From: Octopus vulgaris
Taxonomy: Eukaryota
Length of the DNA: 64,000 nucleotides
Direction: 5' to 3'
NCBI GenBank assembly: GCA_951406725.2
Contig: OX597833.1
Span: 65,348,001-65,412,000 of the forward strand
How positions within the stretch are numbered: position 1 is the first letter of the stretch; every line of letters starts with the position of its first letter. The notes below the pieces were generated by a model that was not told the origin of the DNA, ran no database searches, and saw nothing but the letters and a program-made list of their open reading frames with translations. Of the stretch, positions 6,123-62,874 are shown piece after piece. The position numbers were made by a program, and so were the translations under genes.

Positions 6123-6193
6123 CCCTTTTCCATTTCTATTTTGAACACAAAATACTGCATGGCAACGCGGGAACATCTCCTAGAAGCAACCAA

Positions 6194-6404
6194 GGCGGTG
6201 AGCTGACTGAATCGTTAGCATGATGGACAAAGTGCTTGGCGACATCTCGTCTCTCTTCACAGTCTGTGTTCATATTACGCCGAGGTCGACCCTGTATTTC
6301 ATCTTTTCGGGGTCGATGTAATAAGAACCAGTCGAACCCTGGGGTTGCTGTAATCGACTTACCCCAACCCCGAATTGCTGGCCCTGTGCCAAAATTTGAA
6401 ACCA
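6194..6404 (+). mobile_element. SINE-A (tRNA-derived head, GGTCGACTTTGCCTTTCATCCTTTCGGGGTCGA core), diverged copy
   Basis: Aligns with more than 15 copies in the window. The core resembles the Meta/MESC SINE domain as I recall it (not checked). Confidence 0.85.
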
Positions 6405-6737
6405 ATATATCATAGAAGTGGCTCCCAAAGCGAACTGCGAATATTGTTTTCCTATCAGTTTTAACCGCATTTAGGTCCCTAATCCCAAACAATATAACAA
6501 CCTCTATGTTTAGAAATAGCCACAGAATCTCACCTAAAACATTGCAATGTGTGGTGATTGAATCCCTTTCTCTGAAAATATATAATTCATATTCCTCATA
6601 CGCTTATTCTATGAAGGGCTCAACCGGGGCTGATAAAACAACAACGAGGTATACTCCTCATACATAGCGTTTTGTCCCGAGGAATATAACATATTTCAAA
6701 ATGTACGCATTGCTGTGTGGTAAGGATCATGGGAAAA

Positions 6738-7086
6738 AACTTGTGAGTAGATTTGGTAGATAGAAACTGAAGGAAGCATGTCGTGTGTGTGTGTGTATAT
6801 GTGTGCCTGTGTCTGTATCTGTGTGTGTCTGTGTATGTGTGTATATCTATATGTGTGTGTATCCGTGTGTGTATCTGCGTTTCTTCTCCACCACTCCTCG
6901 ACAACCGGCGTTGGTGTGCTTACATCTCCGTAATTTAACGGCTCGACAAAAAATACCGTTGGAATAAGAACCGGGCTTTAAAAAAAATAAATAAATAAGT
7001 ACCGGGATCTATTCGATCGACTGAAAATTTCTTCCAGTCGGTGTTCCAGCTTGGCCGTAATCTCATGACTGAAAGAAATAAAAGAG
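6738..7086 (+). mobile_element. SINE-B, 5'-truncated and diverged
   Basis: cttgtgagtagatttggtaga...internal (TG)n...gacaaccggcgttggtgtg...tgactgaaa matches the full copies at 15337 and 37444. Confidence 0.8.
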
Positions 7087-7689
7087 AAACGATATCACTG
7101 ATTCGTTCTTTCTCTTCTAAATCTATGGCGTTCTCTGGTTAGTTTTTAACATTTTTAAATATGTAAAACCACCAAAAAAAAAAAAAAATCAATATCTCTG
7201 TCTGAGGCGCACAACCTGGAAAGATTTAGCAATATCAAATTCCACTCCCACGAGAAATACTATTATTCAACAATTGAGAAGAGATTATAAAATAAATTAT
7301 TGAAACGCTGCATACATTAGTTATAATCGGATTTATTGTATTTCTAAATTTCAAAGCCAGGAGAACAAATGTTCTTTGAATCTTATCACTGCATAGAATT
7401 GGTATCTGTTCTACTCTTTATATCCCAGAGAGAATCGATATCAAAGATTAGTTTATCAAATGTCAATCGGTATATTTACATAGTTTAATGGATCGTCTGA
7501 GCAGAGTGTGTTGGCAGATTCAAAAGAGCTTCGTATAAAAATATCATTTATATATTTTCATCGGCTATATATATGAGTTCGAATTCAAGAAGCGTAGATT
7601 TTAGGCTTCTTCTTTTATTTTTTGCGTGTCTGAAGCACTGTTTCTTACAAATGATTGTATTCGATTTCTTTTTCTTAACTTACAAAGCA

Positions 7690-7856
7690 AAGCGACGAGA
7701 GGCCAAATATGTTACCACGCTGGACAAAACGGTTAAAGATATTTCGTCCGTTTTTACGTTCAAAATCTCCTGACGTCAACATTGCCTTTCATCTTTTCGG
7801 GGTCGATAAAATATGTATCATTCGATCACTGGGGTCGATATGATTGACTACCCCTA
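7690..7856 (+). mobile_element. SINE-A, diverged
   Basis: Core ttgcctttcatcttttcggggtcgataaaa...cactggggtcgat. Confidence 0.8.
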
Positions 7857-8017
7857 CTATGGAAACAACTCTATTGTAAAGACTACGAAATATTTTTGGG
7901 TCGCTGAAACACCAGAATCTGCGGTTTTCGTCCCTTTATAGATGAATTGTCTTAAAAAAATTTTTTTTTTTTGAGGCGAAACAAAATCGCTCAGAATTTA
8001 ACTGCATAAATAAATAA

Positions 8018-8051
<34 letters not shown>

Positions 8052-8056
8052 TTACT

Positions 8057-8104
<48 letters not shown>

Positions 8105-8108
<4 letters not shown>

Positions 8109-8402
8109 CGACTGGTTTATACAGAGTTTCTGCCTACCAAATCCATTCAGAGGACATTGATCGGCCCGAAATTTATAGTAGAAGATACCAGCACAAGGTA
8201 CCGCCTAGTGGAATTGAACCCAAAATCTACTTGTTACAAATGATGCTTATCAGCCTTCCGTCCGTTATTATCTTCTGAGTTCAAACTCCACCGAGGTCGA
8301 CTTTGCCTTTCATCATTTAAGGTTGGGAGATCGATAAAACATGTACCAATTGAGCACTGGCATTGATATAATCGCTGGCTTTGTGCTAAAATTTGAAACC
8401 AA
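8105..8402. mobile_element. SINE-B fragment (-, about 8105-8240) abutting a SINE-A fragment (+, about 8245-8402)
   Basis: Homology to in-window copies of both families. Confidence 0.7.
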
Positions 8403-8803: not shown

Positions 8804-8898
8804 CGCGGCTGAAGAAGGCTTTTGATCTATCTGTTATATCGATTATGCATTGATGTAATAATAAGTTGTTCTATAAAGCCCGAAACATATGTACCACA
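8804..8898 (+). ncRNA. Minimal type I hammerhead-ribozyme motif (Penelope-like), long loop II
   Basis: CTGAAGA (8809-8815), stem II GGCTTT/AAAGCC, GAAA (8882-8885), palindromic CATATG, GTA cleavage triplet, imperfect stem I cgcgg/ccaca. Confidence 0.6.
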
Positions 8899-9639
8899 CC
8901 ATCCTTTGCGTCCTGTTTTTCATTTATTTCATTTGATACATATATATCTATATCTATAGTGTGTAGTCCTCTGACATTCGCCTAAAAGCTGCTAGTCCAG
9001 AAAGACTTGGGATAAAAATGTAAAACGCAAAAATGACCAAAGCGAAAATATTTGCATCCTGTCTTCGAATTCCTACAGTTTCTAATCAAATATCTTAACC
9101 ACGAAGACAAGGAATAGCTTAGTAAACGAATTAAAATTTATTATTGATTAGTCGCGAATATTATTATTGAATAACGCCAATGGCAATGTTATCGCGCAGC
9201 TTTTTCTTTTTTCTTTCGTTCTCAAATATTTAATCCTACTTTCGCCAAATGTTTCCTGTAATGTCTTCTGCAAATTTTACCATTTTTTCCTTTCTTTCTT
9301 TGAATAGATCTGATGCAAGAATGATTTGTTGCTTTTAACATTTCCTGAAAGCTATTTTGTCTTGAATGATTTTTTAAAAGGTCAAGATCTGTAGAATCTC
9401 AAAGAACATCACTACGATTCGGCCACCGCTAAAAAGAAAAGAAAAGCGGAAGAAAAGCAAAAAAAATCCAAAGAAAAATTTTATATCAAAGTCAACAATA
9501 ATTCCACTCAGTCTTGGAGAAAATATGTTTTGGTCATTTTGATAATGAAACAAAATGAACGCCATGATTACAGGAGTTGTTGGCGCTTAATGTCCATCTG
9601 CGTAGATTATGTTTGCGTTTATGAAGTGGTGTGTTTATG

Positions 9640-13699: not shown

Positions 13700-13950
13700 T
13701 TTCTACTCTTTCCTACTCTAGGCACAAGGCCCAACATTTTGGAGGAGGATGATAGTCGATTAGGGTGACACCAGTACGCAACTGGTACTTAATTTATCAA
13801 CTCTGAAAGCTGATGACATCGATCTCAATGCTTAACTGGTACATAGTTTATTGACCCCGAAAGGATGAAAGACAAAATCAGTGCCCGGCGGAATCTGAAC
13901 TCAAAACTCAGAATTTTACCCAGGGTGCAAACGATTTTATCATTACACCA
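13700..13950 (-). mobile_element. SINE-A fragments
   Basis: ggcacaaggccc..aaattt, actggtacttaatttatc, gaccccgaaaggatgaaag. Confidence 0.75.
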
Positions 13951-16865: not shown

Positions 16866-17162
16866 CCAGCAGTATCGCCCGGCGTTGCTCAGGTTTGTAA
16901 GGGAAATAACTATATAAGCATTTTAGAGAGTTACTTCCCTTATATAATAGCAAAAAAATGCATTAAAAATGGGAAAAAAATAATGGTAATTTTTTTTAAA
17001 TCGTAGACTCATCATAGACGCGCGCTAATACCCAGAAGGGCTTGATATGAATCACAACTATAAGATACCCGGTTTTGGTTAAACTGCACCGCAAAATGTG
17101 GGAGTAGTTAGGAATCTAAATCGTAGGAGACAGACACACAACTTCACTTTTATATATAAAAA
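16866..17162 (-). mobile_element. Non-autonomous Helitron, short (about 300 bp) variant
   Basis: 3' CTGG (CTRR) end with subterminal hairpin. Homologous to the 35976 copy but lacks the GC-rich middle. Confidence 0.85.
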
Positions 17163-17984
17163 TATACAGCGAGTGTTCGTATCTTCCGGTTACCAAAGTT
17201 TAATTCCTATCGTTCGTTCCCTCACTGAATCTAAAGAGACTTCCTCAGTGTGTTACACGGTTTGAATCCCACGCAGAAACACGTGTTTCCAAAGTCACAC
17301 TGTCTAACCACTCAACCACAGAACTAAGTATTCCGAAAACTACTACTAGACCAGGTGAATGGTTGCGAACTGAATAAATACACTTTTATCGAGAGATGAA
17401 ACGAAGTCTTTATGTTCATAATCTGTTTGAGTTGACGCTGTCAAGAGATTTAATTTGATTAATAGAATATTATCAAAGACATTTATGTAAAGAGATCTGA
17501 ACAGGAAGTCATAAACCCGACAATAAGCTAGTCTCATATCACACATAAATGTTACAGTGAAGTACCTTCAACGTGGTTATCTAATGTGTTAGAAATAGCA
17601 GCCAGATATCTGTATTATCACATTGCTTTATTGTCTTTCCGTTTAGTTCTGTGCAGTGAATATAGGTAGGCTGTCTTTGAATGGGTTCGAAAGATTCCAT
17701 GTACGATTTTCTTTGAGGAGCGGGGACTGTCCCTGCTCTCACTTGTTCTACATTTTGGGGCAAAGGGACTTTTTTAAGTGCTGCCCTATGACTCTTCTCG
17801 TGGTGAAATTTACCCAATTACACAAGGTAGATAAAAAAAAAAAAGAGGTAGCTCGGGTGTTTAAATTTCGCATGATGTGGGCGAAATTATTAGTTTTTCA
17901 ATATTTACTTTCTCGTGGTTTTATATTTCATTCAATTTATTAAAACACAAATAAAAAAATTGTGATTTATAATACATTCAATTT

Positions 17985-18172
17985 TCGGCACAAGGCCAGA
18001 AATGTGAGGTAATAAGTAAGTCCTGGCTTCAACTGGGGCTTATTTCATCGACCCCGAAAGGATTACAGGCAATATCGACCTCGTGGGAATTTGAACTCAG
18101 AACCTAAAGAGGAACGAAATGCCTCTAAACATTCTGCCCGGTGTGCTAACGGGTCTACCTGCTCGCCGCCTT
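17985..18172 (-). mobile_element. SINE-A
   Basis: Head-to-tail homology with other copies. Confidence 0.85.
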
Positions 18173-18189
18173 ATCCTTGATCTGTATTC

Positions 18190-18572
18190 TTTTCTACGCC
18201 AAGCACAAGGCCCGAAATTTTGGAGGAGGGTGTCAGTCGATTAGATCAACCCCACTACGCAACTGGTACTTAATTTATCGACTCCGAAAGGACAAAAGGT
18301 AAAGTCGACCTGGGCAGAATTTGAACTGAGAACGTAGTGACAGACGAAATACCTATTTCATTACTGCCACAAGGGGCTAATCACAGAGGGGACAAGCAAG
18401 GACAGACAAAGGGATTACATCGACCCCAGTGCGTAACTGGTACTTATTTAATCGACCCCGAAAGGATAAAAGGCAAACTCGACCTCGGCGGAATTTGAAC
18501 TCAGAACGTAACGGCAGACGAAATACCGCTAATCATTTCGCCCAGCTAAAGTTTCTGCCAGCTTGCTGCTTT
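18190..18572 (-). mobile_element. SINE-A dimer (tail-1 unit plus tail-2 unit, single head)
   Basis: Junction gaaata|ggtatttcgtctg at 18354/18353. Flanked by the imperfect direct repeat cttatcc.tgatct.tatt. Confidence 0.85.
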
Positions 18573-18706
18573 CTTATCCATGATCTATATTAAAGCTCTT
18601 GGGATTTGATGCAAAACTAAGCTAAGGGAGCAGATGTGTTTATACCCAGCCCCCCAAAAAAACAAAGACATATAAATTCCTTTTTATTATTTATTCGAAT
18701 TTTGAA

Positions 18707-19125
18707 GGCGGTGAGTGGGTAAAATTTGTTGTATTTCGACCATCGCCACGTTCTGAGTGCAAATTCCGCCGAGGTCAACATTGCCTTCCATCTTTTCAGG
18801 GTCGGTAATTTAAGTACCAGTGAAACACTGGGGTTGATGTAATCGACTTGCCCCCTCCCCAAAATCTCAGACCTTGTGCCATTAGAAGAAATGATTATTT
18901 ATTCGAATTCTGAAGGTGGTGAGTTGGAAGAATATTTAGCGCCCCGGGAGAAAGGGTTAGCGGTATTTCGCCCGTCGCCACGCTCTGAGTTCAAATTCCG
19001 CCGAGGTCGATCTTGCGTTTCATCATTACGGGTTCAATAAAATAAGTACCAGTTACATATTGGGGTCGGTGTAATTGACTTAATCCCCTCCCCCCGAACT
19101 CCCTTTGTGACAAAAATTTGAAATC
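18707..19125 (+). mobile_element. Two tandem full SINE-A copies
   Basis: Heads at about 18707 and 18915. The motif attattt(t)attcgaatt.tgaa occurs three times (before, between and after). Confidence 0.85.
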
Positions 19126-19264
19126 ATTATTTATTCGAATTATGAAATCCAGCAACCAGAATCGTAGCGCTCCAGACATGCATGTATAGGCACACACACA
19201 CACACACCCTGATCCACACACATGCGCAGAAGCAAAGAAAAGCGAACGCGGTGTAAATAACGGA

Positions 19265-19398
19265 CAGAGTCAAGACTATTGAAAAGGTTGCAAGACGCAA
19301 CGAACATTTTAGGAAAATAAAAAATAAGAAATAAGTGGAAATTTTACCGGTGAATTATAAGGCACAAAAAGAAAAGGACTCTCCCCAGACACAACAGT
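19265..19398. repeat. Repeat family F (unclassified)
   Basis: Homologous to 33355-33467 and, inverted, to 61790-61925. Confidence 0.75.
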
Positions 19399-19435
19399 AT
19401 ATATATGTGTGTGTATGTGTGTCTGTGTGTGTGAG

Positions 19436-19466
<31 letters not shown>

Positions 19467-19467
19467 T

Positions 19468-19500
<33 letters not shown>

Positions 19501-20239
19501 GTATGTATATGAATATATGTATATACTAATATACTATGGGCTTCTTTCAGTTTCTGTGAACCAGTTCCACACACGAAGCAATGGTCAGCGGCACAGCTAT
19601 AGCAGAAGACACTTGCCTAATTTGCGGCGCTTCTCAACCACAAAGCCACACCTTGCAAATCAAAATACACTGCAAAATTTTATCAGACACATAACCTCTT
19701 TGTCAATTCTCCTGCTTATCATAGAAAATATTACAGTCACATAACAACATGGGAAAGCCATGGTCTGAACTTAGCTATGCAAACGTTCTTTACACAGCGT
19801 ACCTTCCAAAAGCGCCCGAATTTCTTTTGAAGTTGTTTTATCTTACGTTAATATTTTATTTTGTATACTCACTTTTTGGTAATGTCACCGTAAAATGCTT
19901 TGGAATTTGATTCAAATTATTATTATCATTTCCCTTTTCAATATTTTCCTGGTCGTTTTTGCTGCGCTATAAATTTCCACCTCCATATTATCCCTTCATT
20001 GAGCAGTGATGTCTTTCGGGATCGAAATAATGTTTGTGAGTTACGTTTGTCTTGTTTTATTACACAGCTATTTTTGTTTTGTTTTGTTTTGTTTTTGTTC
20101 TTTCTGTCTGCTGTTACATCAACATTCGTGTGTTTGTTGTACAGAATACATTCGCTTTATGTGTCGTGTCATTTTACCAGATGCAGTCTGTGTTTACTAA
20201 GTTTTGTGTCAATTATGCGGGTATCAAACATCACGTGAG

Positions 20240-20350
20240 TGAAGGCGTATAGCCTAGCGGAGAGGGTATTCGGCTCAGCTCCACGAGGTAGTGTCTTCGA
20301 TTCTTGGCAGCGCGTTGAGTCATTGAGTAAGACAATTTATTTTCGCGTTA
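20240..20350 (+). mobile_element. tRNA-derived SINE head (family D)
   Basis: ggcgtatagcctagcgg...ttcgattc...ttgagtaagacaatttatttt matches 32158-32291 and about 13075-13175. Confidence 0.65.
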
Positions 20351-20351
20351 A

Positions 20352-21268
20352 TGCGGCAAGCTGGCAGAATCGTCAGCACGCCGGGAGAAATGCTTAGCGG
20401 TATTTCGTCTGCCGTTACGTTCTGAATTCAAATTCTGTCACGGTCGACTTTGCCTTTCATCCTTTCGTGGTCGATTAAATAAGTACCAGTTCCGACTTAA
20501 TCCGTTTGTCTGTCCTTGTTTGTCCTCTCTGTGTTTAGCCCCTTGTGGGTAATAAAGAAATAGGTATTTCGTCTACCGTTACGTTCTGAGTTCAGATTCT
20601 GCCGAGTCGACTTTGCCTTTCATCCTTTCGGGGCCGATTACGCACTGGGGTCGATATAATCGACTTAATCCGTGTGTATGTCCTTGTTTGTCCTCTCTGT
20701 GTTTAGCCCCTTGTGGGTAGTAACGAAATACGTATTTCGTCTGCCGTTACGTTCTAATTTCAAATTCCGCCGAGGCCGACTTTGCCTTTCATTCTTTCGG
20801 GGTCCATAAATACGTACCTGTTACACACTGGGGTCGATATAATCGACTTAATCCATTTGTCCTTGTTTGTCCCCTCTATGTTTAAGCCCCTTGTGGGTAG
20901 TAAAGAAATAGGTATTTAGTCTGCTGTTACGTTCTGAGTTCAAATTCCGCCGAAGTCGACATTTGCCTTTCATCCTTTCGGGGTCGATTAAATAAGTACC
21001 AGTTACGCAATGAGGTCGATATAATCGACTTAATCCGTGTGTCTGTCCTTGTTTGTCTTCTCTGTGTTTAGCCCCTTGTGGGTAGCAAAAAATAGGTATT
21101 TCATCTGCCTTTACGTTCTAAGATCAAATTCTGCTCAGGTCGACTTTGCCTTTTGTCCTTTCGGGGTCGATGAATTTAGTACCACTTACGTACTGGGGTT
21201 GATCTAATCGACTGCCCCCCCACCCCACCCCCAAAAATGTCAGGCTTTGTGCCTAAAGTAGAAAACAT
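20352..21268 (+). mobile_element. SINE-A pentamer: one head plus five 165-185 bp units
   Basis: Units start at GGTATTT near 20399, 20563, 20731, 20911 and 21095. The first four end in tail-1 and the last in tail-2. Confidence 0.9.
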
Positions 21269-21368
21269 CATTTTCTAATTTTTTAAATCCATTTGAATAG
21301 TTAAGTCTCACAAAATCTTACATTTCTCCGACTCCAGCACTCCTTCGACTCTATCATATTATTATTAT

Positions 21369-21406
<38 letters not shown>

Positions 21407-21424
21407 CTATTATTACTATTACGT

Positions 21425-21628
21425 TGGTGAGCTGGCAGAATCCGGTGAACACCGGGCGAAATGCTTAGCGGTACTTCGCCTGTCGCTCGTTCTAAGATCA
21501 AATTCTGCCGACGTGGATTTTGTCTTTCATCTTTGGTGTCGATAAATTAAGTACCAGTGAAACACTGGGGTCCATTTAATCGACTTATCTCCTCCACCAA
21601 AATCCCTTGTGGCAAAATTTTAAAACAT
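21425..21628 (+). mobile_element. SINE-A
   Basis: Head ggtgagctggcagaatc, core and tail-2, embedded in (TAG)/(TAT) repeats. Confidence 0.85.
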
Positions 21629-23640: not shown

Positions 23641-23735
23641 GTGGCAGCTTATTTAGGTTTGAACCTTCGAAGTGAAGACAAGACACCGAAGATCACAGAA
23701 ATCCGCCACTAATAGTTGTAGTTTAACAACAATAT

Positions 23736-24085
23736 GTATAGAATAAAAAGCTTTGAATAGTATAACAATGCACTATAATGGACTATATACCTATATATAA
23801 CAGGGATATAGTCCAAACAATGGGCCATATACCTGTTCTAATTTAGTCATCCATAGTCTGATGATATTTCGGAATAAAATTCCTTCTTCAGATATTCTTT
23901 GATGGAGTCGTTACTATAATCGGTTTTCCAACGGCTTTACTTTTACTCCATCTAAGAATAGCTGAAGCAGGAATTTTATTTCGAAATATTATCAGACTAT
24001 GGCTGACTAAATTAGAACAGGTGTATAACCCATTGTCTGTATTATAGTGCATTGTTGTACCATTCAAGATTTTTTTATTCTTTAC
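23736..24085. mobile_element. Foldback/MITE-like element with imperfect arms of about 140 bp
   Basis: acaatggg..atatacctgttctaatttagtca.ccatagtctgat..tatttcg.aataaaattcct.cttcag.tattctt.gatggagt has its reverse complement at about 23945-24085. Confidence 0.85.
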
Positions 24086-24134
24086 AAACAATATACAATG
24101 CTTCAAGCGAACTACAATACTCTCCTAACAATAT

Positions 24135-25207: not shown

Positions 25208-25987
25208 ATACAATTATTTCTGTGCATGTTTCTATGTATGTATATATATTACTATATTTTTCTTAATTTTCCTCTTAAAGCCGATTCTAATGAGCTCAGT
25301 TACTGCCAACTTTCTGAACAAGATTGTATCTACATTCTTAATTATTTTCTAATCTAACATCTCACCCAGTTTAATATCCGCAGTTGTGCAGGTTAGTCAA
25401 AACTATGAAAATAATTCTATTTCATACTTTTTATTTATTTATGTATTCATTTTATTTTACGTTTCGTTTTTTTCTCTTTTTCCTTGTTTTTATATTTCCC
25501 CGGTTTCCTTGCAAGTATGGTTCGCCATGTTGTTGGTTGGATTCTCAATAAATCATTAATTTTTAGATAAGATTCTTCTTTTACAGCCGTGACAAGGTTT
25601 CATCACACATCGTGGCAATTTTTTTTTTGTTTTTGTTAGTTTCCTTATAAATTCCTTCCATGGATTTTTATTATATTTTATTTCATTTCAGATTATTTTC
25701 AAATTCATTTTACTTTATTTTCTAATTTCAAACCGAATCTTATTGGTATAAATTAAATATATCGCTGTGAAATTCTTGCTCTGCGTTTTACGCATTGGCA
25801 TCGAAACGTAAATACATTTTGGCAATTCCTCTCAGCATTATTGGCTTATTACATAATAATTTACATATTCTTAATTATTTTCAGTTTTTCTTTATTTTGC
25901 AGGTTTCACTCATTGGACTGCGACCATGCTGGAGCACGTCTCTCAGGGCATTAATTGGATCATATTGAACTTGGTATTTTGTCCGGC

Positions 25988-26416
25988 AAGGCGGCGAGCT
26001 GGCAGAAACGTTAGCACGCTGGGCGAAATTCTTAGCAGTATTTCGTCTGCCGCGACGTTCTGAGTTCAAATTCCGCCAAGGTCGACTTTGCCTTTCATCC
26101 TTTCGGGGTCGATAAATTAAGTACCAGTTACGCACTGGCGTCGATGTAATCGACTTAAAAAAGTATTTCCGTCTGTCTGTCCTTGTTTGTCCTCTCTGTG
26201 TTTAGCCCTGTCTTGTGGGTAGTAAAGAAATAGGTATTTCGTCTGCCGTAACGTTCTGAGTTCAAATTCCGCCGAGGTCGACTTTGCCTTTCATCCTTTC
26301 GGGGTCGATATTTTAAGTACCAGTTACGCACTGGGGTCGATCTAATCGACTTAATCCGTTTATATGTCCTTGTTTGTCCTCTCTGTGTTTAGCCCCTTGT
26401 GGGTAGTAAAGAAATA
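25988..26416 (+). mobile_element. SINE-A dimer (two tail-1 units) with 15-bp TSD
   Basis: TSD ggtattttgtccggc (25973-25987) / ggtattttgtctggc (26417-26431). Internal junction aaagaaata|ggtatttcgtctg at 26232/26233. Confidence 0.9.
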
Positions 26417-26914
26417 GGTATTTTGTCTGGCTCCGATGTCTTTCCCTGTGCACGTAAGATAAATAATACAAAACGTTTATTCGGCGTCAACGGGTGATAA
26501 TATTTTCGCATACGGATATCTCTCGAATTTCCATTACAATATAACAATTTTCACCCCCTGCTAATATGAGCTCGTGCTTATACGGAACAGCATACACACA
26601 TCCAAACACTAATACGTGTACTGATCTGGTGAGCGTAAAACTCGCAGATATATCCAAATAACTGAATGTAATAAACAGCATTACCTCTGAGGAGAAAAGA
26701 GTTGTAATTGCTGTCCAGGTTGTAAGAAAACAATTATCGAGAACTCAATAAGGTTTGAAAATCAATCAAAATTTGTCCATCATTTTTCTTCAAACTACGT
26801 AGAAACAGTTAAAATTTGTTGCCTGAATTTATTCCTCTGCGTAGATTTAAATACATTATATCATACCCTGACCATACGTGGACAGAGATCCGCGTTAAAA
26901 GCCAGCTTATAATA

Positions 26915-27097
26915 CTTTCTACTACACACAGGCTGAAATTTTGGGAGAGGGGAACAGTCGATTGCATCGATCCCAGTGCATCACTGGTACTTAATTTATC
27001 GACCCTGAAAAGATAAAAGGTAAAGTCGACCTCAGCGGAATTTGAACTCAGAACGTAAAGACAGACGAAATACCGCTAAGAATTTTGCTCTGCGTAC
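26915..27097 (-). mobile_element. SINE-A, 5'-clipped
   Basis: Core and tail-2 on the minus strand. Confidence 0.85.
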
Positions 27098-27425
27098 TAA
27101 AAACAGAAACAATTCCTATCATAGTAGGCGCATTAGGTATGATAAAAAAATATTCAGACAAATGGCGGTGCCCCAGCATGGCCACAGCTCGTGAGCTGAA
27201 ACTAGATAAAATAAAAAAATAAATAAAAATACATAACAAATACACCAGAACTAACAAGTATATATAACATACAGAAAATTGCACTACTAGGCACTGCACA
27301 CATCCTACGTAAAACACTTTCAATATAGTAAAGATAAGGGCATCACAACAAACCACAGCACTTGCTCAAGGCATACAGAGCTGCGTTTGGTTGTGCAGTG
27401 AAAGCACGCTATAAAAATAAAACTA

Positions 27426-28077: not shown

Positions 28078-28443
28078 ATATAGTGGTAGTATACTGTCAA
28101 CGCAACGTGACAGTCCCCTAAAGGGAATCACACCACCGCTATTTAGCCCTAGGAAGCATCGACGCCTCCTGTCGGCTTTGACACATTTCATGTGTCCTTA
28201 TATTTGCAAAGGGGAGCTAGCAGGACTTAATACCCCGGACTGATGACGGGCAAGACCCAGAAACATGTCTCCAGGTGCTAATCCTAGCTGGCGGGGGTGC
28301 TTGCTTCCCCTTTGCAAATATAAGGACATAGGAAATGTGTCAAAGCCGACAGGAAGCGTCGATGCTTCCTAGGGCTAAATAGCGGTGGTGTAATTCCCTT
28401 TACGGGACTGTCACGTTGTGTTGAGAGTATACAACCACTCTAT
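28078..28443. mobile_element. Foldback element with arms of about 160-170 bp and a hammerhead core at the apex
   Basis: Arms 28078-28239 and 28270-28443 are reverse complements with scattered mismatches and one indel. Confidence 0.9.
28233..28276 (+). ncRNA. Minimal type I hammerhead ribozyme
   Basis: cccgga CTGATGA (28240-46) cGGGcaagaCCCa GAAA (28260-63) CATG TC tccagg. GTC triplet at 28267-69, palindromic ACATGT stem III. Confidence 0.75.
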
Positions 28444-31640: not shown

Positions 31641-31685
31641 ATCAAAATCTGAGCTCGCTATTATTTCAGTAGAGGAATATATGTA

Positions 31686-31854
31686 ACAATTATTCGGTTG
31701 CTATAATAAAACTACGAGTTTGGGATATCGGGGAGGAAATCTGCTTCGGCATCTCGTCAGTTATTAAGACAAACAATAATGCATGAGATTCCGGAGCAGA
31801 ATTCTGCCCCGACATCTGAAAGTCGGAGTTTTATTATGCCAACCGAATAATTGT
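31686..31854. mobile_element. Foldback/MITE-like element with diverged arms of about 78 bp
   Basis: acaattattcggttg.tataataaaact.cga...gat.tcgggg..gaa.tctgct.cgg.atctc and its reverse complement. Confidence 0.8.
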
Positions 31855-31889
31855 CAAATATTATATTAAATATATATATATATATATCT

Positions 31890-34639: not shown

Positions 34640-34967
34640 ATGAAATACGTCGAGGGAGCACCCAACAGTAGAATGGTTATATGAGAATGTACCAACTCTC
34701 TCATCAACCACCTAAGAGTGAAGGTTGAGGTTTGCTGGCCACTGCTTGAGATGTAAAGAAGAACTACTGAGTAGTGTGTTGCTATGGACACCAAATCTTG
34801 GTACCACAGAAGCTGCAAGACCACTGAAGCCGTATATACAACAGCTAGCAGAATATGTTGGATGGCACGTGGAAGACCTAAAAACACTAATGGAAGATCG
34901 GGATGGATGGAGAGAGGTAGTCAAGCTGGCCCAGGCAATCAGCTTGACTGGAGGATGCTTCCTTTAA
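34640..34967 (+). mobile_element. RTE-clade (RTE-X-like) LINE 3' fragment
   Basis: EHPTVEWLYENVPTLSS..RLRFAGHCLRCKEELLSSVLLWTP..RPLKPYIQQL..MEDRDGWR, with in-frame stops. Confidence 0.85.
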
Positions 34968-35422
34968 AAAGAAAGAAGGATCCCAGGTTATTATTTACGA
35001 TCTACGTCTGCAAAATGTAAAGATATTTAATGAAATACTGAAATGCTAGTAAGTCACGATTTAAAAGTAATGGCTTACGTTTGAAGGGGGAAAACTTCGC
35101 CAGTGTTATAAAAGCTCTCAGATTATATTGCATGGAACGCATGGAACATTAGATGTTGCAGGGCTAACTGCTCTGAAAGTGTATATTAGGGGAGTTGGGT
35201 GCCAAAACGACAGACGGGCGGTATGCTGAAAATGAAGAAACATCTATGTAAAAATAGCAGCCTTTCTTTGGTACTTTAGAAGAAATGCTTAAAAGCGGAA
35301 AAGAAATAATGGATCACTTGTTTCAATGTTGAAAATCATTCATTAGTATTTCTGTTATGAGAAGTGATATAACACCAAACATCACAATCATCATCATCAT
35401 CAATATCGTGATTATCACTCTC

Positions 35423-35462
<40 letters not shown>

Positions 35463-35817
35463 AACAGGTTGCTTGACCGCATACCGAAAAAGTAGAAATA
35501 GCAGTCAAGAATGCTTATTTCTATTTTCCACAAGTGGGGCTCCACACACGACAAACCCTGCAATTCACATATGCAAAACAGAAGGAATAGATATCGAAAA
35601 CGAAGTCTGCTGGTTATCTGTGAACATCATGTTTCTGGATTATAAACATATTGAATATATATTTCATATATATTGCATATATATTTCACATCCGTCTTCA
35701 GCACAGCATATGTGAATTGCAGGGTGTGTCGTGTGTGGAGCCCCACTTGTGGAAAATAGAAATAAGCATTCTTGACTGCTATTTCTACTTTTTCGGTATG
35801 CGGTCAAGCAACCAGTT
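35463..35817. mobile_element. Foldback element with near-identical arms of about 112 bp
   Basis: Arms 35463-35574 and 35706-35817 differ at only about 2 positions. Confidence 0.92.
35618..35706 (-). ncRNA. Type I hammerhead-ribozyme motif in the foldback spacer
   Basis: Minus strand reads CTGTG CTGAAGA cGGAT..(AT-rich loop)..ATCCa GAAA CATGATG TT CACAG. Perfect 5-bp stem I, GTT triplet. Confidence 0.7.
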
Positions 35818-35975
35818 GCCTGTCCCTTTTTCTTATATACAATATATATACTGAACTTTACAGAAGTTCCTACCGTTAATCGGCTATATTTACATACCGA
35901 ATTCTACCAGTAAATAATTGTGGTCTTTTTTTAAAAACCATTATAAAAATTATTTACTCTTATTATTATATTATA

Positions 35976-36485
35976 TCTATATATATAAAACTCTAGTTGT
36001 GTGAGTGTCTGTCCCCTTCGATTTAGATGCCTAACTCCTCCCACATTTTGCGGTGCAGTTTAACCAAATTCGGGTATCTTATAGTCGTGATTCATATCGA
36101 GCCCGTCTGAGTATTAGCGCGCGTCAACGATGAGTCTACGATTTTAAAAATAATTTAACATCATTTTTTATTCCATTTTAATGCATAATTTTTCGTGTGT
36201 CGATGGCGGCGGAGTTGGCGTCCACGCTCACAGCTGCACCTGTTTGCTTCTCCCCCATCCCTCCCTCGTGAAGCTGTGGGGAAGAGAGTGTAAGGAAATC
36301 AACGTCGTAATGCGTTGTCAAGGAGACCAGCGTTCTTTTAGAACAACGACTTCATGGCTTGAAGACACCAAAACAGAAATGGCTAAGAAAGCCCGAATTG
36401 GCATCTATAAGGGAAGTAACTCTCTAAAAATGCTTATATAGTTATTTCCCTTATAAACCCGAGCAACGCCGGGCGATACTGCTAG
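35976..36485 (+). mobile_element. Non-autonomous Helitron (510 bp)
   Basis: A|TCTATATATATAAAA 5' end, CCCGAGCAACGCCGGG hairpin, CTAG|T 3' end, no TSD. Confidence 0.92.
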
Positions 36486-36495
36486 TATATATATA

Positions 36496-37002
36496 TCTAT
36501 ATATATATAAAACTGTAGTTGTGTGAGTGTATGATCCCTTCGATTTAGATTTCTAACTCCTCCCACATTTTGCGGTGCAGTTTAACCAAATTCGGGTATC
36601 TTATAGTCGTGATTCATATCGAACCCGTCTGACTATTAGCGCGCGTTAACGATGAGTCTACGATTTTAAAAATAATTTAACATCATTTTTTATTCCATTT
36701 TAATGCATAAAATGCATCGTGTGTCGATGGCGGCGGAGTTGGCGTCCACGCTCAAAGCTGCACCTGTTTGCTTCTCCCCCTTCCCTCCCTCGTGAAGCTG
36801 TGGGGAAGGGAGTGTAAAGAAATCAACGTCGTAATGCATTGTGAAGGAAACCAGCGTTCTTTTAGAACAACGACTTCATGGCTTGAAGACACCAAAACAA
36901 AAATGGCTAAGAAAGCCCGAATTTATAAGGGAAGTAACTCTCTAAAAATGCTTATATAGTTATTTCCCTTACAAACCCGATCAACGCCGGGCGATACTGC
37001 TA

Positions 37003-37003
<1 letters not shown>
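36496..37003 (+). mobile_element. Non-autonomous Helitron, second tandem copy
   Basis: Same termini, separated from the first copy by 10 bp of (TA)n. Confidence 0.92.
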
Positions 37004-39395: not shown

Positions 39396-40850
<1,455 letters not shown>

Positions 40851-44869: not shown

Positions 44870-45607
44870 GACGATCAATAGGGATTGTGTATCACAGAAA
44901 AGGGAAAACAGATTAGGTTTGTCCGTGTTTCCAAAACCCTACGAAAAGACCACGGGAACCTTGAGCAATAGTGTCATGCGAAAAGAAAACACAGTACAGT
45001 AAGTGGCTCCCTTTTATTCCTTCCTTTGTTTTTTGGGGGGTTTTTTTTGGGGTTTCTTTTGTTTTTTCTTTCATAGGATTATGCTCAAGCTGGGTCCGTC
45101 ATTCAAACGTGCCATCCTTGCTACATTCACCCATCTTTTTTTTTAAACATTCTCAAGACAAATCTTCCCTCTCTGCTCTCATCTTCTTCTTCAAGTGATA
45201 CTTGAAGAATTTGAGAGAATGACCAGAGAGGAAAGTGTTTGTCTCTAATCCTTTCAGGCGCGTCCTCCATACACATTCTTTCACCATAACCACAAGTACG
45301 AGGAAAATGGCCTTTCCTTCCCGTTTGAAGGAAGGAGGCGCGATAATATTCATGATAGACTCGGTTGATAAATCGACTCGGTCCACACGCGATAGCAGTT
45401 GTTCGACATGGGCCCAAAGGTCGGAAATGGCTAGACAATGTACGAGTGCGTGTTGGACGGTTTCATCGCTCTGACCGCATCCCAGACAGGTCGGCCCCGT
45501 GTTTCTCGAGGCATGCCTGTAGAGCTTCTCCCGAACGGGTAGCGCTTCTCGATAGCACTGCCAGGCCAAGGATCTCTGCAAGTTGTCCATAGGCCCAAGC
45601 CCGAAAG
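44870..45607 (-). mobile_element. L1/Tx1-clade LINE 3' fragment (zf-RVT/CCHC domain plus 3' UTR)
   Basis: SLAWQCYREALPVREKL...TCLGCGQSDETVQHALVHC..SDLW, then KECVWRTR. The 5' truncation abuts (GATA)n. Confidence 0.9.
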
Positions 45608-45638
45608 CTAGAATAATTAGATAGATAGATTGGTAGAC

Positions 45639-45738
<100 letters not shown>

Positions 45739-48780: not shown

Positions 48781-49013
48781 CGATCTTATCAAGTGGCCAG
48801 CATGGAAAAAATAACCTCCAAACGTAACAATTATGAAAATTATAAATTAAAGGTATCTACGAGATACCACCATGCTGAAAATAGCAGCCATGATTCGACT
48901 CTAAAACCACCTTAAGTGTTCATATAGCAACATATATGCTATATGAACACTTAAGGTGGTTTTAGAGTCGAATCATGGCTGCTATTTTCAGCATGGTGGT
49001 ATCTCGTAGATAC
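48781..49013. repeat. Family G copy ending in a perfect 77-bp-arm palindrome (48853-48929 / 48937-49013)
   Basis: Arms read as exact reverse complements, with a 7-nt loop. Confidence 0.9.
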
Positions 49014-49026
49014 ACTAATTCATAAT

Positions 49027-49065
<39 letters not shown>

Positions 49066-53166: not shown

Positions 53167-53712
53167 GGCGGCGAGCTGGCAGAATCATTAACACGCCGGG
53201 CGAAATGCCTAGCGGTATTTCGTTTGTCTTTATGTTCTGAGTTAAAATTCCGCCGAGGTCAACTTTGCCTTTCATCCTTTCGGGATCTATAAATTAAGTA
53301 CCAGTTGCATACTGGGCCAATCTAATCGACTGGCCTCCTCCACAAAAATTTCAGGCCTTGTGCCTAGAGTACAAAAGAATATTTTATTTGGAACTTTACA
53401 TTCTGAGTAAAAATTCTGATGAGGTGGACATTGCTTTTCATCCTTTCAGGGTCGAAAAATTAAGTACCAGTTGCATACTGGAGTCAATCTAATCGACTAG
53501 CTTCCTACCCCAAAATTTCAGGCCCAGTGCCTAGAATACAAAAGAATATTTTATTTGGAACTTTACGTTCTGACTTCAAATTCTGCCAAGGTCAACTTTG
53601 CCTTTCAACATATCGGGGTCGAAAAATTAAGTACCAGTTGCGTATTGGGATCGGTGTAATCGACTGGCTCCCTTCCCAAAACATTTGGGCCTTGTGCCTA
53701 GAGTAGAAAAGG
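53167..53712 (+). mobile_element. SINE-A trimer of tail-2 units
   Basis: One head. Units are joined by aaaagaatattttatttggaac|tttac. Confidence 0.85.
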
Positions 53713-58835: not shown

Positions 58836-58855
58836 ATGATTAAACTAAAGAATTA

Positions 58856-59368
58856 TCTATATATATAAAACTGTAGCTGTGTGAGTGCCTGTCCCCTTCG
58901 ATTTAGATTCCTAACTACTCCCACATTTTGCGGTGCAGTTTAACCAAATTCGGGTATCTTATAGTCGTCATTCATATCGAGCGCGTCTGGCTATTAGCGC
59001 GCGTCTACGATGAGTCGACGATTTTAAAAATAATTTAACATCATTTTTTATTCCATTTTAATGCATAATTTTTCGTGTGTCGATGGCGGCGGAGTTGGCG
59101 TCCATGGTCACACCTGCACCTGTTTGCTTCTCCCCCTTCTTCCCTCCCTCGTGAAGCTGTGGGGAAGGGAGTGTAAGGAAATCAACGTCGTAAAGCGTTG
59201 TCAAGGAGACCAGCGTTCTTTTAGAACAACGACTTCATGGCTTGAAGACACCAAAACAGAAATGGCTAAGAAAGCCCGAATTGGCATCTATAAGGGAAGT
59301 AACTCTCTAAAAATGCTTATATAGTTATTTCCCTTACAAACCCGAGCAACGCCGGGCGATACTGCTAG
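58856..59368 (+). mobile_element. Non-autonomous Helitron
   Basis: A|TC...hairpin...CTAG|T, highly similar to the 35976 copy. Confidence 0.92.
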
Positions 59369-59556
59369 TTCAATATATTTTAATAATTTTATTACTTTTA
59401 ATCTTTAACCCTTTGACGCCGGTATTACTTGAAGCATGCGAGACACTGCTCCGTTTTTGGGGGTTTTTTTATCTAATGAGGCCACACAAACACAGACATG
59501 GCCCATCTCTCCATTGGTCTCCTATTTAGCAAGAGACCCTTGGAATAGTCCTAGGA

Positions 59557-62192: not shown

Positions 62193-62226
<34 letters not shown>

Positions 62227-62229
<3 letters not shown>

Positions 62230-62864
62230 GCAGTATCGCCCGGCGTTGCTCGGGTTTGTAAGGGAAATAACTATATAAGCATTTTTAGAGAGTTATAGCC
62301 AAAAAATAGCAAAAAATGCATTAAAAATGGAAAAAATATGATGGTAAATTTTTTTGAAAAATCGTTGACTCATCGTAGACATTTTTAGAGAGTTACTTCC
62401 GTTATATAATAGCGAAAAAATGCATTAAAATGGAAAAAAAACGATGGTAATTTTTTTTTTAAATCGTAGACTCATGTAGACGCTTTCTTAGCCATTTCTG
62501 TTTTGGTGTCTTCAAGCCATGAAGTCGTTGTTCTAAAAGAACGCTGGTCTCCTTGACAACGCATTACGACGTTGATTTCCTTACACTCCCTTCCCCACAG
62601 GTGCAGGTGTGAGCGTGGACGCCAACTCCGCCGCCATCGACACACGAAAAATTATGCATTAAAATGGAATAAAAAATAATGTTAAATTATTTTTAAAATC
62701 GTAGACTCATCGTAGACGCGCGCTAATACTCAGACGGGCTCGATATGAATGACGACTATAAGCTACCCGAATTTGGTTAAACTGCACCGCAAAATGTGGG
62801 AGTAGTTAGGAATCTAAATCGAAGGGGACAGACACTCACACAACTACAGTTTTATATATATAGA
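62227..62864 (-). mobile_element. Non-autonomous Helitron, chimeric with internal duplications
   Basis: 5' TC at 62864, 3' hairpin, CTAG mutated to CTAT. The block gtctacgatgagtc.acgatt...aatgcat occurs three times. Confidence 0.88.
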
Positions 62865-62874
62865 TATACATAGC

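Follow-up and report, generated by a model that had tools for sequence, protein, structure and literature searches.

The foldback at positions 35463 to 35817 of the window, a 64,000-nucleotide stretch of the Octopus vulgaris genome, is likely to be the dead insertion product of an endonuclease-bearing Penelope-like element (PLE): two 5'-truncated copies of the 3' end of such an element that would sit head to head within a (TA)n tract. What we observe are the arms, a hammerhead motif, TA tracts on both sides, unequal outer ends and a junction at the base with which helix I begins. The assignment to PLEs rests on this architecture together with the type of ribozyme, and the polarity that we give to the copies is read from one ribozyme at one locus. 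The arrangement is most likely an ordinary one, the tail-end scar of a PLE rather than the mark of a new class of elements that combine inverted repeats with a hammerhead. A new class had been suggested in the original prediction, but the arrangement has already been published (PMC8557442, PMC3846280 and PMC4209133, in the parts of these papers drawn on here).

Arms, junction and outer ends

The whole foldback measures 355 bases. Its arms, which had been described as near-identical over about 112 bp, agree at 110 of 112 positions (two substitutions, 98.2% identity) and enclose a spacer of 131 nt (Table 1). The left arm has an internal hairpin at about 35486-35528. A young age, proposed earlier from the high arm identity, is plausible with arms that are 98% identical. 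If the arms date an insertion as a pair of LTRs does, the 35463 foldback (2/112) would be young, the neighbouring 28078 element (93%) older and the palindrome at 23735 (82%) older still. Neither arm has a second copy elsewhere in the 64-kb window, nor is there a direct repeat of the element in it.

Table 1. Positions of the features discussed in the text; the last four lines refer to comparison contigs, all others to the window.
Feature	Position	Strand	Remarks
Left arm	35463-35574	minus	112 nt; putative 3' terminal part of the long, hammerhead-bearing copy
Right arm	35706-35817	plus	putative short inverted copy, truncated before the ribozyme
Single-copy 48 nt	35575-35622	minus	downstream of the predicted cut; begins with the helix I 3' strand
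Type I hammerhead motif	35618-35706	minus	read from the sequence
Head-to-head junction	35700-35712		palindromic hexamer CATATG + C at the arm end
(TA)n tract, (TA)17	35426-35460		abuts the left end; likely insertion target
One-sided extension	35818-35833	plus	about 14 nt + CT, then TA-rich tract; possible short PLE tail
Sister foldback, other family	28078-28443	plus	arms 28078-28222 / 28298-28443, 93%
Older palindrome	23735-24086		about 82%; outward-pointing hammerhead remnants in both arms
Foldback	31679-31861		adjoins TA tract; no half-descriptor match; CTGACGA in one arm
Foldback	48832-49033		adjoins TA tract; near-perfect inner stem; no half-descriptor match
PLE-type hammerhead	8805-8900	plus	core 8809; 6-bp helix II base, about 50-nt loop; palindromic helix III
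Degenerate PLE-type hammerhead remnant	15906	minus	outside foldbacks
Degenerate PLE-type hammerhead remnant	24705	plus	possible 7-bp helix I, without clear helix III; outside foldbacks
Broken mariner transposase	39708-40777	minus	HTH_48, E 6.7e-13
RT zinc-finger remnant	45156-45737	minus	zf-RVT, E 3.3e-7
Complete head-to-head PLE-type unit	L042:395-768	hammerhead-sense	two hammerheads, 28-31-nt tail, 11-13-bp TSD; AT-rich metagenome contig
Complete head-to-head PLE-type unit	L071:2704-3097	hammerhead-sense	as above
Complete head-to-head PLE-type unit	L091:59-399	hammerhead-sense	as above
Complete head-to-head PLE-type unit	L058:729-1058	hammerhead-sense	as above

The C that follows CATATG at the junction is both the last base of the arm and the first base of helix I, so that the single-copy part starts exactly at the 5' edge of the ribozyme. 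The short copy ends 48 nt before the predicted cut site, which lies 160 nt from the outer end of the arm here, against 174 nt in the 28078 element. With the arms kept in register, the inner end of the single-copy segment shows partial complementarity to the ribozyme core (5 of 6 positions pair), a weak signal that 960 of 20,000 shuffles also reach. We also weighed whether the left junction has a second, degenerate ribozyme on the plus strand, and rejected this, as several core positions differ and no alignment extends beyond 10 nt.

Partial complementarity of this kind could set off a fold-back at the junction at any time, and the arms are 98% identical although loop II had time to expand. Both points would suit a later inverted duplication, through repair or replication, of an older single PLE remnant, which would make the foldback younger than the insertion. 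We regard this as very improbable, because on either side the duplicated arm stops at the same TA boundary and includes no flanking host DNA, and because comparison loci described below repeat this shape within single TSDs.

The outer ends are unequal, the right arm running about 14 nt further before the TA-rich tract is reached, and both can be read as AG...CT within TA. A TSD is unreadable in the TA tract at this foldback. The long near-perfect arms with TA on both sides, and this reading of the ends, would also suit a DNA transposon of the MITE type whose terminal inverted repeats measure 112 bp, with TA (or AT) duplicated at the target and a PLE hammerhead captured in its middle, and the window holds another foldback without a ribozyme (48832-49033). 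The inequality of the outer ends, an arm that stops exactly at helix I and hammerhead half-cores in three of five foldbacks that have no terminal sequence in common make this an improbable explanation.

The hammerhead motif and its predicted folding

All the parts of a minus-strand hammerhead that had been claimed for the spacer (stem I, core, GGAT/ATCC, GAAA and the GTT triplet) can be read directly. Helix I pairs CTGTG (35706-35702) with CACAG (35622-35618) over 5 bp on the minus strand, and the core CTGAAGA at 35701-35695 is followed by a C at 35694. This C opposes an A (35636) beside the 4-bp base of helix II, GGAT/ATCC, which is capped by a long AT-rich stem-loop; loop II has about 49 nt and takes much of its length from 3.5 copies of an 11-bp tandem repeat. 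GAAA lies at 35635-35632 and its last A is also the first A of helix III, ACA-TGA-TGT, with 3 bp and a 3-nt loop. Then comes the GUU triplet, with the predicted cut at 35623|35622. The conserved type I core (CUGANGA, GAAA, NUH) and the three helices in type I order are present, while the paired 10.1-11.1 position directly between A9 and G12 is absent, the C·A preceding the first G-C pair.

The motif is well beyond chance. A full type I descriptor, written like the half descriptor below after the motif had been seen, finds three sites in the window, where 200 dinucleotide shuffles yield 0.055 on average, and a stricter version (helix I of at least 5 bp, helix II of at least 4) finds only the site at 35618-35706 and none in 200 shuffles. 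The PLE-type half descriptor matches 14 of 20,000 shuffles of the 35463 spacer; in the whole window it matches eight sites, compared with a shuffle mean of 0.40 and a maximum of 3 in 300 shuffles. Rfam hammerhead models gave no match at E<=10 in focused scans of the 35463 and 28078 elements (23 and 3 matches, none of them a hammerhead). The whole-window Rfam scan was swamped by miRNA matches to AT microsatellites, as seen in the best 150 of its 381 matches. The missing Rfam match is what would favour a chance motif or an assembly chimera, an explanation that we find extremely improbable in view of the shuffle controls, the two differences between the arms and the differing flanks. At least half of the words of 35200-35965 are held by 4 of 24 listed sequencing runs (three studies), which also speaks against a chimera, although one of these runs may be the assembly source and the junction itself is not proven in this way. 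Runs guessed to be RNA hold a fraction of 0.00-0.21 of the same words, which is no evidence on expression.

In the predicted fold of the full hairpin, helix II is stable (0.88-1.0), helix III is marginal (0.35-0.53) and helix I is lost (0.00), and enforcing the ribozyme fold costs a predicted 6.5 kcal/mol. A predicted 0.91 for helix I is confined to transcripts whose start lies just upstream of the junction and whose end lies no more than about 10 nt past helix I; with longer 5' arm sequence in the transcript its predicted probability is at most 0.11. Since helix I is lost in the predicted full-hairpin fold, the ribozyme is probably silent in place, a passenger predicted to be misfolded in a whole-hairpin transcript.

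These predictions bear on two readings in which the ribozyme would be at work. The foldback could belong to a self-contained non-autonomous hairpin family, whose whole arm-ribozyme-arm unit would be transcribed, cut in the loop and reinserted whole by a PLE enzyme in trans, making it a fold-back counterpart of retrozymes. The core is intact, the triplet is GUU and the 3-bp helix III is possibly workable as a monomer; in addition the arms are very young, two cases of one ribozyme in a loop lie within 8 kb, and PLE ends have been described as sufficient for mobilisation in trans (PMC3846280, in the part drawn on here). We nevertheless hold such a family to be quite unlikely, given the loss of helix I and the folding cost predicted for the full hairpin, the lack of a second copy in the window, a loop II that holds a minisatellite expansion, and comparison loci that vary in junction position rather than forming fixed units. 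One could also imagine a self-propagating 'fold-back retrozyme', a fixed RNA of arm, ribozyme and arm in which the hammerhead would cut only co-transcriptionally, before the anti-core segment and the second arm are added, and would be locked off in the finished hairpin, which a PLE enzyme would copy whole and which would release long dsRNA for editing or small-RNA pathways. We hold this, too, to be quite unlikely. If true, it would give a ribozyme-bearing non-coding element a new route of spread and would be a source of long dsRNA.

Related structures in the window and in metagenome contigs

In the sister foldback at 28078 the hammerhead core lies at 28240; helix III is palindromic, and helix I is long and imperfect. 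This extended helix I takes in the innermost 8 nt of the left arm, 7 of which match the opposite arm, which amounts to microhomology at the junction. The 28078 element has the core, the C·A and GAAACATG in common with the 35463 element, and the arms share nothing: local alignment gives only AT-rich matches with scores of 25 and 22. Two points of the original prediction, that the arms of the two foldbacks are unrelated and that both ribozymes have the same C-A opposition at the base of helix II, are borne out here. The two elements are the same kind of product despite their unrelated arms. The older palindrome at 23735-24086, which has one core at 23891 on the minus strand and a degenerate partner near 23960 on the plus strand, is the symmetric form of the same insertion type.

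A hammerhead half-core is carried by three of the five non-microsatellite foldbacks of the window, and three of the eight half-core sites fall within 2.3% of its length. To this extent the suspected enrichment of hammerheads in foldbacks holds within the window, with two of the three sites being those that prompted the test. The PLE-type hammerhead at 8805-8900 lies downstream of a TA-rich microsatellite and outside the long foldbacks. Sites 26687 and 53416 were rejected as PLE hammerheads; they lie in or beside copies of a dispersed SINE-like repeat and are therefore uncounted. Apart from the arms within each element and a single AT-rich match, no homology links the downstream tails of the window hammerheads.

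For comparison, a scan with a gapped core pattern returned 103 loci, 4 viral and 99 from metagenomes. Of these, 62 are GC-rich, with flanking inverted-repeat scores that never exceed 27; they were treated as chance and left out of the foldback count. Four GC-rich viral loci were discarded, three of them identical around the motif and all without helix I support or a foldback. The 41 AT-rich loci reduce to 30 distinct ones, which look like animal host DNA, probably that of insects. The comparison loci were classed by foldback and hammerhead. No RT was recognised by eye in open frames of at least 90 aa in the 30 AT-rich loci.

A foldback is present in 17 of the 30 distinct loci; the other 13 lack one by the criterion used, a few of them having short flanks. 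Most of the foldback loci (12/17) have a second, inverted hammerhead and the remainder (5/17) have one hammerhead only. Because foldbacks with one and with two hammerheads both occur, the lone spacer hammerhead of the octopus element can be placed at the extreme of a graded series governed by the point at which the shorter copy stopped. An 11-13-bp TSD behind a 28-31-nt one-sided tail, a signature published for PLEs, is found in 4 of the 17 (Table 1).

Three origins are conceivable for the C·A opposition: it may be a genuine variant of this family, it may reflect an A added to the standard PLE motif, or it may have come from a C-G pair through CpG decay. Of the 12 partner hammerheads in the comparison loci only 2 keep the A that precedes GAAA, so that in those loci the A would mostly be decay picked by the pattern, and it gives no support for the C·A as a conserved trait. 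A different AT-rich hammerhead at L069:1790-1815, on the minus strand, also has a C..A opposition, with a 3-bp helix II and no foldback. We take it to resemble a bivalve repeat.

Likeness to published elements and setting in the window

By analogy, the 35463 element would work like the inverted terminal insertion unit of endonuclease-bearing PLEs, and we think it likely that it does. The sections of PMC8557442 drawn on here describe PLE insertions with an adjacent inverted 5'-truncated copy, a one-sided tail of 30-40 nt and microsatellite targets that hide the TSD, and those of PMC3846280 describe head-to-head PLE inversions with junction palindromes, for which self-priming was proposed. The octopus foldback resembles these units in its putative head-to-head inverted copy, which gives flanking inverted repeats, in its junction palindrome and unequal outer ends, in its AT-rich or (TA)n target and in a hammerhead near the 3' end. 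It differs in having no ORF and no direct pLTR, in that only one copy reaches the ribozyme, and in an extension of about 14 nt versus 30-40. Integration in the manner of inverted Penelope pseudo-LTRs, as the original prediction had it, is supported by architecture, TA target and ribozyme type, but the parent element was not found in the window. The proposed search for a GIY-YIG/RT Penelope parent came back empty, with no Pfam match to a PLE-type RT or to GIY-YIG among 142 open frames of the window.

Under the PLE reading, the RT-endonuclease of the parent would nick AT-rich DNA, here the TA tract, and, with the RNA still uncleaved, would begin reverse transcription some 160-175 nt downstream of the cut site. 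The copy would pass through the uncut ribozyme and stop at the 5' edge of helix I. The inverted copy of the last 112 nt could then be a product of fold-back or self-priming at the junction, or the same 3' end could have been copied a second time over a shorter length, and the ribozyme would be single and central in the loop because only the longer copy reached it. Comparable behaviour is described in the part of PMC11167929 drawn on here, where the RT of an anole PLE in vitro initiates internally, downstream of the ribozyme, at AT-rich nicks and with RNA that is uncleaved, and where ribozyme cleavage is not required. A long copy that starts at the first base of helix I bears on the role of the PLE hammerhead during copying.

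The closest anatomy is that of Hydra-clade PLE hammerheads. We keep the assignment to that clade tentative and lean slightly against it. A (TA)n target and a canonical-type hammerhead with a short helix III are Hydra-clade traits that the element has; they are not exclusive to the clade. In File S2 of PMC8557442, as far as it was drawn on, all 25 Hydra-clade families have a short helix III (3-4 bp, 1-3-nt loop), helix II starts on an unpaired T·T or T·C opposition in 15 of the 25 by our own count, and the hammerhead of PLE-X1_cBra has a C..A opposition. The shared C-A opposition is therefore not unique to the two octopus ribozymes. The same paper reports that nearly all Hydra families target (TA)n, with one in an octopus, and gives as protein traits of the clade the RWK, DKT and CxCX5C motifs and no CCHH. 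The element agrees with these hammerheads, and with PLE-X1_cBra, in the opposition at the base of helix II, in a 3-bp helix III with a small loop and in the (TA)n target. The distance from ribozyme to element end is about 30-350 nt in the Hydra-clade table, by our own arithmetic, and about 155 nt here. Loop II has 3-10 nt in the Hydra-clade rows, in contrast to about 49 nt with a tandem repeat in the octopus element, and the helix sequences of Hydra-1_Obim differ from those of the 35463 hammerhead.

PLE hammerhead pairs on opposite strands, 100-700 bp apart, are described in the part of PMC4209133 drawn on here, along with a consensus extra base after CUGANGA and low activity in vitro. The published hammerheads of this type are like the octopus motif in having CUGANGA-H followed by a G-C pair, a short helix I, and scattered singles as well as opposite-strand pairs. 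AGAAA occurs in one of the 56 rows of the published Fig. S3, probably that of a Cotesia bracovirus PLE, the row order taken from the PDF text being uncertain. The 35463 hammerhead differs from this type in its 4-bp helix II base with a long loop and in the non-palindromic 3-nt loop of helix III; the 28078 element is a better fit to the palindromic-helix-III type. The C·A variant may already be covered by work of 2017 on small PLE hammerhead variants. As a natural variant with a 3-bp helix III, it offers a cheap test of monomer cleavage by mismatch-type PLE hammerheads.

Animal non-LTR retrozymes, as described in the parts of PMC7229834 and bioRxiv 10.64898/2026.07.22.740005 drawn on here, are likewise non-coding and low in GC, with a type I hammerhead and a probable dependence on PLEs. 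Their units, each with one ribozyme, are repeated in direct tandem and yield circles, whereas the element is an inverted pair with one ribozyme. We rejected a non-LTR retrozyme for this reason, there being no direct tandem units. PMC8969392, in the part drawn on, is in line with the PLE and retrozyme literature cited here.

Several searches for closer relatives were negative. The PLE consensus file of PMC8557442 contains none of six 11-13-mers taken from the foldbacks and hammerheads of the window, and the 3' ends of Naiad_Obim and Naiad_Ovul are unlike the element by eye. In both translated hammerhead-sense tails no PLE N-terminus is recognisable by eye. We found no description of these particular families in the literature searched, which excluded subscription papers and Repbase, and no paper on a palindromic Penelope of vertebrates. 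On the ordinary reading, the foldback adds an undescribed PLE 3'-end family, and it cautions that a MITE-like hairpin in a genome of this sort may be the scar of a retroelement.

The window itself is AT-rich (GC 0.22-0.41 per 2 kb) and full of microsatellites and dispersed repeats. Of the 143 open frames that passed our filter the Pfam scan covered 142, one being left out, and the only clear matches among the 142 are the mariner and RT zinc-finger remnants of Table 1. The plus-strand frame at 34720-34965 has no Pfam match; it presumably resembles the C-terminus of an RTE-type LINE. A young repeat of about 500 bp, with copies 85-98% alike, occurs at 35972-37003, 58854-59378, 62218-62870 and 16868-17168, and stands in tandem right beside the 35463 foldback. 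We take its start to resemble the 5' ends of non-autonomous Helitrons. The SINE-like repeat, of about 160-200 bp, is present in many copies, often in tandem clusters, at 6191-8374, 13704-13907, 18030-21603, 25987-27100 and 53167-53711.
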